Below, piece by piece: positions 8,951 through 43,020 of a stretch of 64,000 bases of DNA (the stretch's first letter is position 1; the number at the start of each line of letters is the position of its first letter). The DNA is taken from positions 62,622,001 to 62,686,000 of the forward strand of contig CM059432.1 in the NCBI GenBank assembly GCA_030390025.1. Direction: 5' to 3'. The notes beneath the pieces were generated by a model, which was given only the letters and a program-made list of their open reading frames with translations, made no database searches and was not told the DNA's origin. This DNA comes from Squalus acanthias. Its lineage: Eukaryota. The position numbers and the translations under genes are program-made.

Positions 8951-11900
8951 GAGTGGAGTGGGGGAGTGGAGTGGGGGGGTGGAGTGGGGGGGTGGAGTGG
9001 AGTGGGGGGGTGGAGTGGGGGGGTGGAGTGGAGTGGGGGGGTGGAGTGGGGGGGTGGAGTGGAGTGGGGGGGTGAGTTGGAGTGGGGTGGGGGAGTGGGG
9101 TGGGGGGGTGGAGTGGAGTGGGGGGGTGGAGTGGAGTGGGGGGGTGGGTGGAGTGGAGTGGGGGGGGGGGTGGAGTGGAGTGGGGGGGGGTGGAGTGGAG
9201 TGGAGTGGGGGGGGGGGGTGGAGTGGAGTGGGGGGGGGGGGGTGGAGTGGAGTGGGGGGGGGGGTGGAGTGGAGTGGGGGGGGGGTGGAGTGGAGTGGGG
9301 GGGGGGGGTGGAGTGGAGTGGGGGGGGGTGGAGTGGAGTGGGGGGGGGGGGTGGAGTGGAGTGGGGGGGGGGGGGGTGGAGTGGAGTGGGGGGGGGGGGG
9401 TGGAGTGGAGTGGGGGGGGGGTGGAGTGGAGTGGGGGGGGGGGGTGGAGTGGAGTGGGGGGGGGGGGGTGGAGTGGAGTGGGGGGGGGGGGTGGAGTGGA
9501 GTGGGGGGGGGGGGTGGAGTGGAGTGGGGGGGGGGGGTGGAGTGGAGTGGGGGGGGGGGTGGAGTGGAGTGGGGGGGGGGGGGGTGGAGTGGAGTGGGGG
9601 GGGGGGGGTGGAGTGGAGTGGGGGGGGGGGGGTGGAGTGGAGTGGGGGGGGGGTGGAGTGGGGGGGGGGGGGTGGAGTGGAGTGGGGGGGGGGGGTGGAG
9701 TGGGGGGGGGGAGTGGAGTGGGGGGGGGGGGTGGAGTGGAGTGGGGGGGGGTGGAGTGGAGTGGAGTGGGGGGGGGTGGAGTGGAGTGGGGGGGGGTGGA
9801 GTGGGGTGGGGGGGGGAGTGGGGGGGGGGGAGTGGGGGGGGGGGTGGAGTGGAGTGGAGTGGGGGGGGGTGGAGTGGGGTGGGGGGGGGGGTGGAGTGGG
9901 GTGGGGGGGGGGGGAGTGGGGGGGGGGTGGAGTGGAGTGGGGGGGGGGTGGAGTGGGGTGGGGGGGGGTGTGGGGGGGTGTGGAGTGGGGTGGGGGGGGG
10001 TGTGGAGTGGGGTGGGGGGGGGGTGGAGTGGGGTGGGGGGGGGTGTGGGGTGGGGGGGGTGTGGGGTGGGGGGGGGGGGGGAGTGGGGTGGGGGGGGGGG
10101 TGGAGTGGGGTGGGGGGGGGGGTGGAGTGGGGTGGGGGGGGGGGTGGAGTGGGGTGGGGGGGGGGTGGAGTGGGGTGGGGGGGGGTGGAGTGGGGTGGGG
10201 GGGGGGGTGGAGTGGGGTGGGGGGGGGTGGAGTGGGGGGGGGGTGGAGTGGAGTGGGGGGGTGGAGTGGAGAGGGGGGGTGGAGTGGAGTGGGGGGGGGT
10301 GGAGTGGAGTGGGGGGGGGGTGGAGTGGAGTGGGGGGGGTGGAGTGGAGTGGGGGGGGTGGAGTGGAGTGGGGGGGGTGGAGTGGGGGGGGTGGAGTGGA
10401 GTGGGGGGGGTGGAGTGGAGTGGGGGGGGTGGAGTGGGGGGGGTGGAGTGGAGTGGAGTGGGGGGGTGGAGTGGAGTGGGGGGGTGGAGTGGGGGGGTGG
10501 AGTGGAGTGGGGAGTGGAGTGGGGAGTGGAGTGGGGGGGTGGAGTGGGGGGGTGGAGTGGGGGGGTGGAGTGGAGTGAGGGGGTGGAGTGGAGTGAGGGG
10601 GTGGAGTGGAGTGGGGGGGTGGAGTGGGGGGGTGGAGTGGAGTGGGGGGGTGGAGTGGAGTGGGGGGGGTGGAGTGGGGGGGTGGAGTGGAGTGGGGGGG
10701 TGGAGTGGAGTGGGGGGGGTGGAGTGGAGTGGGGAGTGGAGTGGGGTGGAGTGGGGGGGTGGAGTGGAGTGGGGGAGTGGAGTGGGGGGTGGAGTGGGGG
10801 GGTGGAGGGGTGGAGTGGAGTGTGGGGGGGGTGGGTGAGTGGAGGGGAGTGGGGGTTGGAGTGGGGGTAGAGTGGAATGGGGGGAGTGGAATGGGGAGTG
10901 GAATGGAATGGGGGGGAGTGGAATGGGGGGGTGTGGAATGGGGGGGAGTGGAATGGGGGGGGAGTGGAATGGGGAGTGGAATGGAATGGGGGGGGAGTGG
11001 AATGGGGGGGGAGTGGAATGGGGGGGAGTGGAATGGGGGGGAGTGGAATGGGGGGGGAGTGGAATGGGGAGTGGAATGGAATGGGGGGGGAGTGGAATGG
11101 GGGGGAGTGGAATGGGGGGGGAGTGGAATGGGGAGTGGAACGGGGGAGTGGAGTGGGGGGGAGTGGAATGGGGGGGAGTGGAATGGGGGGGGAGTGGAAT
11201 GTGGGTGGAGTGGAATGGGGGGGAGTGGAATGTGGGTGGAGTGGAATGGGGGGGAGTGGAATGGGGGGGGAGTGGAATGGGGGGGAGTGGAATGGAGGGG
11301 GAGTGGAATGAGGGGGGTGTGAAATGGGGGTGGAGTGGAATGGGGGCGTGGAATGGGGAGTGGAATGGAATGGGGGGAGTGGAATGGGGGGGAGTGAAAT
11401 GGGGTGGAGTGGAATGGGGGGGAGTGGAATGTGGGTGGAGTGGAATGGGGGGGAGTGGAATGTGGGGGGAGTGGAATGGGGGGGAGTGGAATGGGGGGGG
11501 AGTGGAATGGGGGGGAGTGGAATGGAGGGGGAGTGGAATGAGGGGGGTGTGAAATGGGGGTGGAGTGGAATGGGGGCGTGGAATGGGGAGTGGAATGGAA
11601 TGGGGGGAGTGGAATGGGGGGGAGTGAAATGGGGTGGAATGGAATGGGGGAGGGGAGTGGAATGGAATGGGGGGAGTGGAATGGGGGGGAGGGGAGTGGA
11701 ATGGAATGCGGGGAGTGGAATGGGGAGTGGAATGGAATGGGGGGAGTGGAGTGGAGTGGGGGTGGAGTGGAATGGGGGGAGTGGAGTGGGGGGGGAGGGG
11801 AATGGAATGGTGAGGTGGAGTGATGGGGGGTGAGGTGGAGTGGTGTGGGGTGGGGTGTGGGGTGGGGTGGTGGGGGGTGGGGTGTGGGGTGGGGTGGGGG

Positions 11901-12253
11901 GTGGGGGGGTGGGGTGGGGTGGGGTGTGGGGTGGGGTGTGGGGTGGGGGGTGGGGTGGTGTGGTGGGGTGGAGTGATGGGGGGTGAGGTGTGGTGGGGGG
12001 TGGGGTGGTGGGATGGAGTGATGGGGTGGGGTGGAGTGGTGGGGGGTGAGGTGTGGTGGGGGGTGGGGTGGTGGGATGGAGTGATGGGGGTGGAGTGGTG
12101 GGGGGTGAGGTGTGGTGGGGTGGAGTGATGGGGGGTGGGGTGGAGTGGTGGGGGGTGGGGTGGTGGGATGGAGTGATGGGGGTGGGGTGGAGTGGTGTGG
12201 GGTGGGGTGGTGGGGTGGAGTGATGGGGGGTGGGGTGCAGTGGTGGGGGGTGG
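8951..12253 (+). repeat. 3.3-kb G-rich compound tandem array: (GGAGT)n+polyG, then GGAGTGGAAT+polyG, then GGGGT/GGTGT/GATGG
   Basis: Directly visible; almost no C on the + strand; zone changes at ~10870 and ~11810. Confidence 0.97.
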
Positions 12254-24945: not shown

Positions 24946-25039
24946 CGTGCTTCACAGGAGTATGATCAGACAAATTTTGACACCAAGAGACATTAGGAGA
25001 TATCAGGACATGTGACCACATGCTTGGTCAAAGAGGTAG

Positions 25040-25233
25040 TGTGGTAACACAATACAGCTTCCTGTGACTCGAACTTTATTGCATCACTTCCTGTGATTAG
25101 TCCAGGATAAATACTGGACTGAGCAGTTGGATCCTGGAGAGGCATAGAGTAAGACCTCTTTTGTATGTAGCACCTTTTTAGTTGATTAAAGCTTACTTTA
25201 AGTTCACCACGCGTAAGGCTCATTCTTACGACA
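25040..25233 (+). repeat. 5' LTR (194 bp)
   Basis: TGTGGTAAC...TTACGACA; TATA-like GATAAATA at 25106 and ATTAAA at 25185; identical to the 3' LTR by eye. Confidence 0.97.
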
Positions 25234-25311
25234 ATTTAATCAACTTTGAAAAACTTCGCACTCAAACTTTTTGGACGAACTCGGAACTAAGGATCCAGGG
25301 AATCACCCATC

Positions 25312-28300
25312 ATGGAAAACATCCTTAAACCATCGCGTCTTGACTTGGACCCAAACACCCCAGCAGCCGGTAAGGTGTGGAAACACTGGTATCGCACGTT
25401 TGACAATTTTCTCGAATATTGCAAGGCTGATGATGACACAAAGTTGCGGATACTCATCAACTGTGTCACTCCGAATGTATTTCAGTATGTTGAGGAATGG
25501 GGCAGTTACGAGGAGGCAATTCGGACGCTTAAAAGACTATATACTAAGACACCGAATGAGGTCTATGCCAGACATCTACTAGCTACAGCCCAACAAGGGC
25601 CGGAGGAATCCATTGATAAATTCCTCCAAGAGCTTCGCAGACTTAGTATGGACTGTAACTTTCAGGCGGCCTCAGCTGAGCTGTACCGTGAAGAAATGAT
25701 CCGTGATGCTTTCATCTGCGGGCTTGCCTCCCCATTTATACGCCAGCGTCTACTGGAAAGTAAGACACTTGAGCTTCAGAGAGCTTATGACATGGCTTGC
25801 TCTCTAGATCTGGCAAAAAGAAATGCAGACCTTTATACAGTGCCCAGACCTCGGTCTGCTGCCTTAACTACAGTCAGGCAATTTAAGAGGCCACAGGTGA
25901 ACTCTATTAGGGAGGACTTTATCCCTGACGATCAATCTGATGACTTCACTGATGAAGAGGATGATGACCCCACTGTGGCAGCCTCTTGGCAATCTAAGAA
26001 ATGCTTCTTTTGTGGTGATGAGTTTCACCCTCGGAAATTCTGCCCTGCTCGCAATGCGTTTTGCAGTCATTGCAACAAAAAGGGTCATTTTGCAAAGGTT
26101 TGCCTATCAAGAGCCTCTACGAGGGCTTATCAAGCTAAGTCCTACCGAACTGCCCCAGTAAGGGCCTATCAAGATGTTCCGGCTAAAATCTATCGTGCTT
26201 CCTCTCGGGTTTTCTCTCGAAGAAACACACCTAGAGTTTCAGCCACTCTTTGTGCAACGACACCAATTACAGCTGCTTGTCCTCAGAACCTATTCCATGC
26301 AGCTACAAAAGCATCAATTAATGGACATACTTTAGATGCCTTAATTGACTCAGGTAGCACTGATAGTTTCATTAGGGAACAGATTGTTGCAGAGTTAAAG
26401 CTACATGTTTTCCCATCGGACCAGGCAATTGCGATGGCTCAGTCATCACTTAATACCAGAATTTCTGGCTTTTGTATGGTTGAAATAACACTTAATGGTC
26501 GCAGGTATCCCTCCACCCGGCTTTCGGTGCTCAAGGACTTATGTAGTGATCTTATCTTAGGGCTGGATTTTCAAAAGCAGCATAAGAAGCTCACCATTGA
26601 GTTCGGCGGATCCAAACCTGAACTCACTATTTCTAATATACGACCTCGATTACCGTTCTGTGCATTGTCAGCAGCTTCACTGGATGAACCCTCACTGTTT
26701 ACCAGTATCCCTCCTCGATGCAAACCGATTATAACAAAGTCACGACGTTTCAGTCAGGAAGACCAGTCTTTTATTGCGGCTGAGATTTCTCGGCTTTTAG
26801 CAGAGGATATCATCGAGCCTTGTTCGTCGCCATGGCGCGCCCAGGTCGTTATTGTTAAGAACCCTCTACAACCTCACAAGAAACGGCTGTGCATTGACTA
26901 TTCACAGACCATCAATCAATATACGGACTTGGACGCATACCCATTGCCGCGCATCGATGATATGGTTAATAAACTGGCTGAGTACACGGTGTTCTCAACA
27001 TATGATCTGAAAAGTGCCTATCATCAGGTACCCTTGAAGGTCTCAGACAAGCAGTATACGGCCTTTGAAGCCAATGGACGGCTGTATCAATTTTGTCGCC
27101 TCCCCTTTGGGGTCACTAATGGAGTGGCTGTCTTCCAGCGAGCAATGGATGACCTGGTCAAACAGGAAGACTTGAAGGATACGTTTCCTTATCTGGACAA
27201 TATTACTGTCGCAGGTCGCAATCAGCGGGAACATGACGCCAATCTCCAACGATTTTGGGATGCACTCCAGCACCGTAATTTGACATTAAATGCGGCTAAA
27301 TCCATTGAGTCACAACCAACCATCAACATCCTTGGCTATTGTGTGGGCAATGGCATCATTAAACCTGACCCTGAAAGGCTTCGCCCACTCCAAGAGCTCC
27401 CGCCACCTAAGAATCCGGCCTCCTTGCGCCGGGCCCTCGGCCTGTTTGCATACTATGCTAAATGGATTCCTAACTACTCGGACCGAATCCAACCTCTACT
27501 GAAGGCCAGCACATTCCCACTAGACACAGCGGCTGTTGCAGCCTTTAACCTCCTGAAAAAACAGTTGGAGAAAGCGGCTCTTCACTCCATCGATGAGAGT
27601 CTTCCTTTTGTTGTTGAGTGTGATGCTTCGGAGGTGGCGATCTCGGCCACTCTGAATCAGGAAGGTCGTCCGGTGGCATTTTTGTCCAGGACTTTTCAAG
27701 GGGCTGAGCTACATTATCCTCCAGTCGAGAAAGAAGCTACAGCCATCATAGAGGCAGTACGGAAGTGGACTCATCTCCTAGCTCGCCAGCACTTTACCTT
27801 AATCACGGACCAGCGATCGGTCGCCTTCATGCTCGATAATCGAAAACGGACCAAAATTAAAAATAATAAAATCCAGCTTTGGCGGCTGGAATTGGCCTCT
27901 TTTGGTTACACCATCCACTATCGACCTGGCAAGGAGAATGTGGCTCCGGATACCCTCACACGAGCATTCTGCTCCGCCATGGCACCCTCTACGCTCATAG
28001 ACATCCATGATGGGTTGTGTCATCCGGGCGTTACTCGCATGCTACACTTCGTGCGGTCCCGAAATCTCCCATTCTCTACCGGGGATGTAAAGAAGATGTG
28101 CTCGGACTGCAGAGTCTGTGCGGAATTGAAACCTCAGTTTTTCCGCCCCTCGGGTGGTATACTCATACATGCGACCCAGCCAATGCAACGGCTTAGCATC
28201 GATTTTAAGGGGCCGTTGCCCTCTTCAACTCGCAACACTTATCTATTGACCATGGTCGATGAGTATTCCCGTTTTCCGTTTGCCTTTCCCTGCCCCAATA

Positions 28301-29268
28301 TGCTGACGACCACGGTTATCAGCTGCCTTGAGCAGGTTTTTGCTTTCTGTGGCATGGCATCCTATGTTCATTCGGATCGGGGCCCTTCTTTTATGTCAGG
28401 AGAACTCAAGGCCTATCTCTCGGAACGGGGTATTGCTGCCAGCAGAACGACGCCTTATCATCCGGTCGGGAATGGGCAAGTCGAGCGTTTTAACGCTATC
28501 ATCTGGAATGCGGTACGTCTGGCTTTGAGATCTCGGGGCCTACCCAACCAGCAATGGGAAGCAGTACTTCCAGACGCATTACACTCCACACGGTCCCTCC
28601 TTTCGACCGCCACAAATACGACGCCTCATGAACGGTTCTTCCGATTTCAGCGTCGCTCATCCTATGGGATATCTCTCCCGTCGTGGCTGACTGCACCGGG
28701 ACCAGTGCTACTCCGAAGATATGTCCGGGCGTCTAAGAATGACCCCCTGGTAGATGAGGTTGAGCTCACTGACGTCAACCCTACCTACGCCTATATTCGG
28801 TATCCTGACGGTCGGGAATCTACCGTGTCATTGCGGGATCTGGCTCCCTGCCCGCCGAAACATAGAGGGACACCAGGGGATGATATTGTACCAGGCACAT
28901 CTCTGGGCTCGCCAGGTGCCTCTCATCACGATCTGGATCTGACGCCGGCTGGTACCTCACTCCAGCGTGCCGACCTGGGGCAGACTGACTATGAGCCCGT
29001 CGGGGCTCGCACGCGCAGCCACGATCCACCCCGTACCATACGCTCGGAAACGGATCTGCCACAGCCCTGCCCGACACCCGTTCGGGCACCAGTACACAGT
29101 CAGGATCGTCCTGACCCCTCACAGAGCGGGCTGGATCACTCGGACTCTGGTCCACGGCCCGCGGCGGGTAAACGGGCTAGGGGCCCTCTACCGCTACGAG
29201 AACCCAAACGGGTGCGGCTCTCCCTCGTCCGGCGGCTACGAAATGGAGGGAGCATCCCGGCCTCCTAA
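25312..29268 (+). CDS. Gypsy gag-pol polyprotein (1318 aa)
   Basis: Two CCHC knuckles (CFFC..H..C, CSHC..H..C), protease LIDSGS, RT (DLKSAYHQ, LPFG, YLDN), RNase H (CDAS, EKE, TDQ), integrase HHCC + D,D35E (IDF, HSDRG, NGQVER); Gypsy domain order. Confidence 0.97.
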   Translation: MENILKPSRLDLDPNTPAAGKVWKHWYRTFDNFLEYCKADDDTKLRILINCVTPNVFQYVEEWGSYEEAIRTLKRLYTKTPNEVYARHLLATAQQGPEESIDKFLQELRRLSMDCNFQAASAELYREEMIRDAFICGLASPFIRQRLLESKTLELQRAYDMACSLDLAKRNADLYTVPRPRSAALTTVRQFKRPQVNSIREDFIPDDQSDDFTDEEDDDPTVAASWQSKKCFFCGDEFHPRKFCPARNAFCSHCNKKGHFAKVCLSRASTRAYQAKSYRTAPVRAYQDVPAKIYRASSRVFSRRNTPRVSATLCATTPITAACPQNLFHAATKASINGHTLDALIDSGSTDSFIREQIVAELKLHVFPSDQAIAMAQSSLNTRISGFCMVEITLNGRRYPSTRLSVLKDLCSDLILGLDFQKQHKKLTIEFGGSKPELTISNIRPRLPFCALSAASLDEPSLFTSIPPRCKPIITKSRRFSQEDQSFIAAEISRLLAEDIIEPCSSPWRAQVVIVKNPLQPHKKRLCIDYSQTINQYTDLDAYPLPRIDDMVNKLAEYTVFSTYDLKSAYHQVPLKVSDKQYTAFEANGRLYQFCRLPFGVTNGVAVFQRAMDDLVKQEDLKDTFPYLDNITVAGRNQREHDANLQRFWDALQHRNLTLNAAKSIESQPTINILGYCVGNGIIKPDPERLRPLQELPPPKNPASLRRALGLFAYYAKWIPNYSDRIQPLLKASTFPLDTAAVAAFNLLKKQLEKAALHSIDESLPFVVECDASEVAISATLNQEGRPVAFLSRTFQGAELHYPPVEKEATAIIEAVRKWTHLLARQHFTLITDQRSVAFMLDNRKRTKIKNNKIQLWRLELASFGYTIHYRPGKENVAPDTLTRAFCSAMAPSTLIDIHDGLCHPGVTRMLHFVRSRNLPFSTGDVKKMCSDCRVCAELKPQFFRPSGGILIHATQPMQRLSIDFKGPLPSSTRNTYLLTMVDEYSRFPFAFPCPNMLTTTVISCLEQVFAFCGMASYVHSDRGPSFMSGELKAYLSERGIAASRTTPYHPVGNGQVERFNAIIWNAVRLALRSRGLPNQQWEAVLPDALHSTRSLLSTATNTTPHERFFRFQRRSSYGISLPSWLTAPGPVLLRRYVRASKNDPLVDEVELTDVNPTYAYIRYPDGRESTVSLRDLAPCPPKHRGTPGDDIVPGTSLGSPGASHHDLDLTPAGTSLQRADLGQTDYEPVGARTRSHDPPRTIRSETDLPQPCPTPVRAPVHSQDRPDPSQSGLDHSDSGPRPAAGKRARGPLPLREPKRVRLSLVRRLRNGGSIPAS

Positions 29269-29286
29269 TCTTTTTGGGGGGGAGAA

Positions 29287-29480
29287 TGTGGTAACACAAT
29301 ACAGCTTCCTGTGACTCGAACTTTATTGCATCACTTCCTGTGATTAGTCCAGGATAAATACTGGACTGAGCAGTTGGATCCTGGAGAGGCATAGAGTAAG
29401 ACCTCTTTTGTATGTAGCACCTTTTTAGTTGATTAAAGCTTACTTTAAGTTCACCACGCGTAAGGCTCATTCTTACGACA
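29287..29480 (+). repeat. 3' LTR (194 bp)
   Basis: Identical to 25040-25233; preceded by the PPT. Confidence 0.97.
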
Positions 29481-29904
29481 GGTAGGTTTTAAGGAGTATC
29501 TTAGAGGAGGAGAGAGAGGCAGAGAGGTGTTGGGAGGAAATTTCAAAGCTCAGAGCCTAGGCAGCTGAAGGCACGGCTGCTAATGGAGGGGCGAAGGAAA
29601 TTGCGGATGCACAAAACGGCAGAATTGGAGGAATGCAGAGTTCTCGGAGGGATGTAGGGCTGGAGGAGATTACAGAGATAGGGAGGGGCGAGGCCATGGA
29701 GGAATTTGAACACGAGGATGAGAATCTTTAATTTGAGGCGTCGCTGGACCGGGAGCCAATGTAGGTCAGTGAGCACAGGGGCGATGGGTGAATGGGATGG
29801 TGCGAGTCAGGATACGGGCAGCAGAGCTTTGGATGAGCTGAAGTTTACTGAGGGTGGAAGATGGAAGGCTGGCCAGGAGAGCATTGGAGTAGTCAATCAC
29901 CCAC

Positions 29905-41045: not shown

Positions 41046-41236
41046 TGACGTAAGAAAACTACTAGGCACTTGGTCTAAGCGTTAAACAAAGCTTTAATCA
41101 ACTGTTTTACAACATGGAGGTCTAGTTGTGTCCTTCACTAGTTCCTGTTAAGAATGTCCTGTGCAAGCTGGCCGGTGCCCGAGTATTTATACTCTCCCTG
41201 GACAGCGCCACCCACAGGCCACTCAGTATTATTTCA
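41046..41236 (-). mobile_element. Solo LTR (191 bp) of a Gypsy family related to 25040-29480
   Basis: Minus strand reads TGAAAT...TATAAATA...AGTTGATTAAAGC...TTCTTACGTCA; same length class, same motif and nearly the same 3' terminus as the Gypsy LTR. Confidence 0.75.
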
Positions 41237-43020
41237 TAAGTCTTTCTTTCATGAATGACAGATTCATGTCAAAAGGTATGCTTCACGGTGCTGGTGTGGG
41301 ATGGTGTCAACCTGGTGCATCATGTGGCAGCCAGGGTTAACAGCGTCAAGTGAAGAAAATCTGGCCATGGTGATGCCATCGCTGGCCTCCCGGGCAGCAA
41401 TGTTTTCAGGGGCTTGATGCCCTGTGTCCAGTGCAGCATCAGGTGATGGCAGAGAAGGTTGGTGGTGTTGCTGGTGTGCCTGGTGATGTTGGTGTTGGGG
41501 CTGAGCGTGGAAGGAATCAGAGGAGCAAGGTGAGATAGTTTCTCGGGCACTGATGTTGCTGCAATAGATGTCAGCTGCAGATGAGATGACAGAAGCGAAC
41601 TGTCAATGGTGAGAGAGGTTGTTCCAATGAGGTGGCACTGGATATACAGTTGGCTCTAAAGACTTGTTAGCTAAAGAAATCTCATATGTCTTACAAATGC
41701 AGTAACCAACGGTTTCTGCGCTCTGAAACTGACCATCTGCAACATGGTATCCTTTACACCACTTCTGCAGCTGTCAGCTTATCAGAAACATCAGAGTAGA
41801 CTCCACTCATGCCAAGGTGAGCTGGCGTGTTCCCCGAGCAGCGGGTAACCCGTGGGGGGCCACGTAAAATTGGAAGGAAGCCTCAAAATACCATTAAATT
41901 GGCTGTTAACAAGCCATTTAATGAGCTCAATTGTCTCCCTGCCGCTTGGTGTCAGGTCAGTTCTCCGCTGACAGACCCGACACCTGGGAGACTCGCGTGG
42001 AGGCAGGTTGACAGCGGGTTTCCTACTCGCTGTCAATCTTTGCTATTTGGACAGCGGACCCGCCTCCAAACCCGCACTCTGAGCACCGGCAAAATCCAGC
42101 CCATAGAGACAGTGAAAAGGTTTCAGGGAAGTTTAAGAAAGGTGATTTTATATCGTTGATCTAAAGAGAGGAATCATAAATTTACTTATTTTCATTTGAA
42201 AAAACACATTTTAGCCTTAGGTTAACTTGGGTTGCTAAAAGTGTCTGGTCTATTCCCAGTCTATGGGCTAAAGTTTGGGTTTTCCCTCCCATGCAGTGGG
42301 CCAGCTAAAGAGAGAAGCACTAATCCTCTAAATCAGCTGTAAACTGCAACTAAGAGGCAATTAAACACCTGAAATAGCAACGGAAAGGCAAAGCCAAAGC
42401 CAGCTGTTTACTTAGTAAAATTGCTTTAAAATTGGGCATTACAGAGTGATGGAAAGCCAATATTGAAGGCAGGTGCTCCAAGCACTACAGCTAGAATTAA
42501 TTTTCATAACATTTTCACCCTCTAATTCTGCAATAGCTTTGCTGGTCATTGAATTGAATAGTTAGGTGGAGCGGTGGGTGGGCACTTAAAATTGCCCATG
42601 AGACTTACCTGCCGAGATCTCGCTCCCTTCCACAGGTTCCTATTTTAACCTGCTTTTCTGACTTCTTTAAATATGCAGATTGGCTCCGATGACATAATCG
42701 GGCCTGATTGCTATTTTAATCCGAGTCAATGGAAAGTGAAATTGGGCAGGGTGTAAAGTGGGTAGTCGCTATGATCGAGTCAGCTTCCCTCCTGCCGAGT
42801 TAAGTTAAAATGACCCCTTAGGTGTCTGTCCGCAGTGAGGGGAGGGCACAGGCCGGTGAGGGGAGAAATGGTTCTCGGTGTGGCAGTGCTGGTTTGTAAG
42901 TTTCTAATAGATCTCTGCAAACATTGAATTCAGTGTATTGTAGTTGGTTCCTGGATGTGCTTTTATCTCTCTATCTATCTTTCTGTTTCTTTGGCTGGAA
43001 TATTTAGCTGCTGATGCACT

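Follow-up and report, generated by a model that had tools for sequence, protein, structure and literature searches.

The window analysed here is a 64,000-nt stretch of Squalus acanthias contig CM059432.1, and all positions below are counted from its first base. Between 25040 and 29480 it holds an intact, young Ty3/gypsy LTR retrotransposon, recognizable by the order of its pol domains, its TG...CA LTRs, a short target duplication and a purine tract. Its features are as follows.

25035..25039, +: left target-site duplication, 5 bp, GGTAG
25040..25233, +: 5' LTR, 194 nt, TG...CA, ending in GACA at 25233; 100% identical to 29287-29480
25107..25113, +: TATA-like ATAAATA, 73 nt 5' of the arm
25178..25183, +: initiator-like TTAGTT, which overlaps the arm at its 5' end
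25180..25190, +: candidate primer arm AGTTGATTAAA, complementary to the site of primer binding (PBS); its 3' end is the hexamer ATTAAA (25185-25190)
25191..25203, +: short hairpin directly after the arm, predicted by folding; GCTTA/TAAGT in the window family
25234..25234, +: spacer A between the LTR end and the PBS
25235..25245, +: candidate PBS TTTAATCAACT, without TGG; reverse complement of the arm
25312..29268, +: single gag-PR-RT-RH-IN open reading frame, 1318 aa, with the domain order PR-RT-RH-IN after gag
aa 231-244 and 251-264 of the 1318-aa frame: two CCHC knuckles
29276..29286, +: polypurine tract GGGGGGGAGAA
29287..29480, +: 3' LTR, 194 nt, with a second arm copy at 29427-29437
29481..29485, +: right target-site duplication, 5 bp, GGTAG

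A preliminary description of this DNA had pointed to a PBS that pairs with the element's own LTR and not with a tRNA, and its main observations hold. The 11 nt at 25235-25245 are the exact reverse complement of 25180-25190, which recurs at 29427-29437; A25234 is the sole base between the LTR end and the PBS; no TGG lies within the PBS; and the arm ends in ATTAAA, as claimed. The distance of about 74 nt given from the TATA-like box to the arm is 73 nt when counted from the start of ATAAATA at 25107. In the 3' LTR copy of the arm, the hexamer probably directs polyadenylation. When the first four offsets past the LTR are considered, 29 of 100,000 dinucleotide-shuffled LTRs hold a complementary 11-mer, so the complementarity is not due to chance. 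Beyond the 11 bp, a fold of the window leader allows about three further pairs on the far side of an internal loop, and the spacer may comprise two bases, AT, if the RNA is cut one base earlier.

The LTR-PBS junction is fixed in the window family. All 40 copies scored, from 844 candidates in the 3.7-Gb genome, are 100% identical over 25040-25330. At one locus (G000:C1:566428-575212), three matches to this junction follow one another at 4247 bp, as expected of tandem elements with LTRs in common.

Arm-PBS pairing across the clade

A search with gag returned 27 homologues and one with RT-RH returned 1374, the named hosts among the 120 listed being crustaceans, cnidarians, nematodes and elasmobranchs. 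Viral contigs were searched and held no relative of the clade, and a search of a protein atlas gave unnamed gag-like clusters only. DNA context was obtained for a second family in the window genome, for 80 of 469 metagenome loci and for 10 contigs from prokaryote assemblies. Contigs L161-L170, which lie in bacterial genome assemblies and carry animal-type retrotransposons, are probably host contamination. All loci were collected through the clade's own RT motif, which places sister clades outside the sample.

The gag start is present in 43 loci, the window included, and in 37 of these a duplex forms with a PBS located one base past the LTR end. The six loci without it (L069, L090, L102, L103, L116 and L166) are truncated or decayed. 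A TGG in L103 was considered as a PBS and rejected, being the context of the gag ATG. The same locus (L103:385-3299) is a gag-pol member of the clade without an LTR pair, with an N-terminally extended gag, and could possibly be a truncated copy or a case of domestication. After removal of these six loci and of 14 near-duplicates, 23 families chosen by eye were left for comparison; some of them are related to one another and thus not statistically independent. Pairing registers were set by maximizing pairing, with five shifted by hand by 1-2 nt.

Counted back from the arm end, positions -1 to -13 are paired in 21-23 of the 23 families and positions -14 to -16 in 14-15, with pairing at background level from -17. 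Pairing is kept while the letters change, which is the covariation that the preliminary description had proposed to look for. Seventeen distinct arm 11-mers occur among the 23 families, and perfect runs of at least 10 bp are found in 19/23 pairings of a PBS with its own LTR versus 41/506 cross pairings. Within one family, L073 differs from L066 by a double change. Two more families in the window genome, with 662 junctions jointly, pair over 12 bp and differ in their letters at -12, a position at which arm and PBS co-change among the families of this genome. The arm-PBS pairing is real and clade-wide, and tRNA-independent self-pairing, as first suggested for the window element, is borne out by covariation in 23 families. 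The statement that pairing stops at exactly 11 bp fared differently: it is correct for the window family, where perfect pairing does end at 11 bp, but relatives typically pair over 12-17 bp (12 in a sister subfamily in the window genome), which makes 11 bp the lower end of the range.

Other Gypsy families of the same genome served as a control. An LTR junction could be read in seven of 15 such loci (L193, L195 and L199-L203), and these show TGG-type sites. These are older Gypsy families with short LTRs, and we take their TGG-type primer site to match tRNA-Ser.

Leader structure, aberrant junctions and the priming site

Directly after the arm, the RNA can form a second helix (RCCT...AGGY in most relatives). 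Its partner is present in 16/23 families, with 3.9 expected and a maximum of 11 in 2000 shuffles; in a looser test the signal is weaker, with 6/23 families at p<=0.05. A simple duplex-energy test for the additional arms of the Tf1 "pretzel" gave 0/23 families on the 3' side and 2/23 on the 5' side at p<=0.05.

Two positions for the transcription start can be proposed from sequence features. At the 5' end of the arm, an initiator-like YHAGY occupies -13 to -9 in 15/23 families, versus 31 of 2185 upstream positions; for comparison, PMC3601003 gives a TCAKTY initiator. The start could accordingly be placed at A25180, within the initiator-like word, a reading that draws on this word, on the sharp loss of pairing at -17 and on the precedent of Tf1. 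The TATA-like box, if used, would instead place the start near 25135-25138, in which case the arm would not be at +1, as the preliminary description held probable. Such boxes (ATAAATA or TATAAA) lie at -84 to -103 from the arm end in all four window-genome families and only in these, at a distance that is not fixed. The upstream start is favored by these boxes, by family-specific pairing upstream of the initiator-like A, and by the inverted part of one aberrant insert (L298, discussed below) that stops at 25135. We would give just under even odds to a short capped primer that begins at the arm or no more than about 6 nt away from it, while a 55-75 nt primer running from the TATA box is a lesser but appreciable possibility. 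With either start site, a single cut at the arm end would still give a usable primer. In RNA data, one raw run contributed no reads and three sets of contigs revealed no ends of molecules. Locus L135, which begins exactly at the duplex, was considered as a mark of the start site and rejected, since its LTR end lies at base 55 and its beginning is likely an assembly k-mer effect. The idea that the AG of the arm is a splice acceptor, formed by eye, was also dropped; the PBS pairs with unspliced sequence across the AG.

We propose, with a probability of about 0.78, that this element and its clade self-prime minus-strand DNA with their own RNA by way of the 5' arm. The arm of the 5' LTR would fold onto the PBS, with the short hairpin stacked directly behind it, and the RNA would be cut at the 3' end of the arm or one base before it, the RNase H of the element being the probable enzyme, as in Tf1. 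Extension of the freed 3' end would then copy the spacer and U5 as far back as the cut, and the strong-stop DNA would jump to the short R that remains in the 3' LTR from the cut to the poly(A) site. As a side benefit, the poly(A) hexamer of the 5' LTR would be masked by the duplex. The cut, the enzyme and the choice of the RNA end that primes are steps that we infer. For Tf1, the transcript is described as cut between bases 11 and 12 (PMC7175516); as an internal cut is needed there too, it would not by itself amount to a new mechanism.

Aberrant insertions left in the genome bear on these steps. The first case was a single locus with an inverted LTR copy after its PBS. A pattern search of the window genome then gave 44 matches, comprising 21 junctions of a PBS with an inverted LTR, 21 ordinary copies and two others. 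Three of the aberrant junctions belong to the window family, and 3 and 15 to two other families. Twelve of the 21 were examined, together with one of the two others, which proved unrelated. Three of the twelve are palindromic LTRs ending at the LTR start. In three more (L301, L304 and L309), the PBS is followed by the inverted arm, U3, purine tract and internal sequence; the far ends of these run-through inserts were not found at the predicted full-length position. Four are solo LTRs in which 18-29 nt of inverted spacer and U5 are inserted at the arm end, with U5 resuming at -1, -1, -3 and an ambiguous -1/+1, and three of these four have perfect target duplications. The remaining two carry LTRs from which U3 and arm are missing, with the deletion running to a 5-nt microhomology at the arm end. 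From these junctions it follows that DNA was synthesized from the arm-PBS duplex and that the minus-strand copy of U5 ends at the arm end; the aberrant inserts yield a predicted cut position. The junction sequence is identical whether the arm or a copy of the PBS was extended. In Tf1, a single-stranded copy of the PBS is present on about half of the cDNA (PMC11042837), which would be a ready source of such junctions.

Three internally deleted mini-elements (L298, L299 and L316) share this LTR deletion, which removed most of U3 and the arm, and are counted as one event. Two of them carry an inverted LTR copy after the PBS, versus one match among window-family copies with intact LTRs. In L298 the inverted part stops at 25135, near the start expected from the TATA-like box, which is weak evidence given an 8-nt microhomology at that point. 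L297 was considered as a long-primer copy reaching the start site and was rejected, as it continues past the TATA box as far as the LTR start.

The primer could also be the arm copy of the 3' LTR, cut there so that the long 3' end primes at the PBS, either in a circle or between two packaged RNAs. The inverted LTR part reaches the LTR start in 10 of the 12 inserts; seven copy U3 to that point and three continue into the purine tract and internal DNA. Inserts of this extent require the 3' LTR as template, and priming from the 3' copy would fit them too. Pairing at -12 to -16, upstream of the initiator-like A, would likewise be natural if the partner carries U3. However, only products with two integrase ends insert, and U3-complete products are therefore favored under any model, while the minus-strand U5 copies stop at the arm end in 4/4 of the solo-LTR inserts, as fits a template cut in the 5' copy. 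A cut in the 3' copy would, moreover, leave that RNA with no R acceptor, and plus-strand copying would meet no stop after 12-16 nt. We consider priming from the 3' copy improbable. The preliminary description had offered internal cleavage or the transcript's own 3' R end as the source of the primer. A cut at the end of the 11-mer agrees with the aberrant inserts, but the 3' R end is less likely because the minus-strand U5 copies stop at the arm end.

Resemblance to tRNA-Thr and the poly(A) hexamer

When the PBS was compared with host tRNAs, as had also been proposed at the outset, a targeted pattern search pointed to the D-loop of tRNA-Thr as a competitor. The tRNA-Thr(AGU) genes of the host carry AGTTGGTTAAAGC, and their D-loop is a near match to the arm. 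It pairs with the window PBS through 10 Watson-Crick pairs and one G-U, for a duplex energy of -10.7 kcal/mol versus -11.1 for the element's own LTR. At L256 (G000:C4:30109705-30112753), the D arm of a tRNA-Thr(AGU) agrees with 14/15 positions of the commonest arm and flank letters of the clade. The primer might be a tRNA-Thr(AGU) 5' fragment of the host that ends in the D arm, with the LTR match as a by-product. In line with this reading, the two duplexes are of similar energy in the window family, and tRNA-Thr is mismatch-free over 11 nt in 8/23 families. Yet the own LTR outpairs tRNA-Thr in 23/23 families and pairs at 35 of the 38 PBS positions at which tRNA-Thr mismatches, counts that apply the one tRNA-Thr sequence of the window genome to all hosts and so inflate mismatches for distant hosts. 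Only three copies of the window family differ at the wobble position, and none of them has the C that would match the tRNA. We regard a tRNA-Thr primer as highly improbable. The resemblance of the arm to the tRNA-Thr D arm may instead reflect ancestry, mimicry or convergence.

Equally improbable is that the duplex serves only to hide the poly(A) hexamer of the 5' LTR against premature 3' end formation while another primer is used: a canonical AATAAA or ATTAAA does end the arm in 14/23 families, but pairing holds in the 9/23 without one, occupies the primer position, where no TGG-type site is seen, and gives rise to the DNA synthesis recorded in the aberrant junctions.

Clade identity and known self-priming systems

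The preliminary description had found the element unlike a chromovirus, with no chromodomain and two CCHC knuckles. Both features are confirmed in the window protein, and the assessment is borne out at the domain level. Among the Pfam families listed for 28 members of the clade (25 of 29) there is likewise no chromodomain, and PF00385 is absent from the matches listed for the 27 gag homologues and for 120 of the 1374 RT-RH homologues. Tf1/sushi chromoviruses carry a GPY/F or SH3_Tf2-1 module after the integrase core. The window frame is without GP[YF], and SH3_Tf2-1 (PF24626) has no match in the window protein or in the Pfam families shown for the 28 members.

In a quick RT-RH tree that included no chromovirus, a single branch (SH-aLRT 100) unites all 23 self-pairing families, and the TGG-site control families form a separate branch. 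We assume the latter to be Mag-like, tRNA-primed animal Gypsy elements. Several candidate chromovirus outgroups were set aside: PF24626 matches were endogenous-retrovirus-like, nine chromodomain loci of the window genome were without pol, and a search with PF03732 gave no match. The window genome also holds endogenous-retrovirus-like loci (L171-L182) with a second RNase H and a long frame after integrase, most of them broken. The published name of the clade may be Cigr-1 or that of a MolGy clade of animal Gypsy. PMC6238403 lists such Gypsy clades without PBS data; a search of one of its five supplementary files for the RT motif of the clade gave no match, and the other supplements may name the clade.

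Tf1 has been shown to self-prime, and the same has been predicted of Tf1/sushi and Tcn1 elements and of the TAR clade of copia (PMC7175516, PMC4600332, PMC6317226). The clade described here resembles Tf1 and Tf2 of S. pombe, Tj1 of S. japonicus and Tf1/sushi elements in having no tRNA site and a PBS complementary to its own 5' LTR (PMC7175516, PMC4600332, bioRxiv 10.1101/2022.12.06.519325). In the window family, the duplex is also 11 nt long, and one cut after it would yield the primer, as for Tf1. Unlike Tf1/sushi, the clade is without a chromodomain, GP[YF] or SH3_Tf2-1 match. It also differs from Tf1 in that most of its families have a duplex of 12-17 bp, that a hairpin following the arm takes the place of a conserved three-duplex pretzel (bioRxiv 10.1101/2022.12.06.519325), and that the arm has a poly(A)-type hexamer at its 3' end, with a start site that may lie upstream. 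Judged from domains and predicted fold, it probably lies outside Tf1/sushi, with a mechanism that would work as in Tf1.

Other likenesses are found further afield. For TAR Ty1/copia elements (Houba, Osr-1) and Tcn1 chromoviruses, self-priming was also predicted from PBS-LTR complementarity (PMC6317226), and in the case of the TAR clade, which is plant Ty1/copia, this indicates that the trait can occur outside Tf1/sushi. Those elements belong to another superfamily or are chromoviral, with plant hosts, whereas the window clade is gypsy-type and has animal hosts. With the half-tRNA-primed copia elements Osser, Bryco and Bianca (PMC6317226), the clade would share a primer made by internal RNA cleavage and the absence of TGG; unlike theirs, its PBS tracks the own LTR and not a fixed tRNA.

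In the literature found, gypsy self-priming is tied to Tf1/sushi chromoviruses, and a non-chromoviral animal Gypsy clade of this design is not described there, with subscription journals and Repbase Reports outside the coverage. Another large lineage in animals, with neither chromodomain nor pretzel, would mean that the trait re-arose or is older than thought, and would bear on whether hairpin priming preceded tRNA priming, a question raised in PMC3601003. A fuller reading would combine self-priming that arose independently of Tf1 in a non-chromoviral animal clade, a long or 3'-derived RNA primer, an arm that is primer, initiator and poly(A) signal at once, and descent from or mimicry of the tRNA-Thr D arm; as a whole we hold it to be doubtful. 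If true, such an origin of the arm would document how tRNA-fragment priming passed into self-priming. Self-priming elements would presumably escape silencing by tRNA fragments directed at the PBS. Annotation software that expects a tRNA site will overlook them or give them a wrong label. The very young, high-copy families described here make the start site and the primer directly measurable in host tissue.

Two further observations concern the window itself. A solo LTR of a third related family lies at 41047-41271 on the minus strand; it contains the same arm, at 41093-41103, and has AAAGG as its 5-bp target duplication. At 8951-12253 there is a 3.3-kb G-rich tandem array with an extreme strand skew, which accounts for the long spurious frames there.
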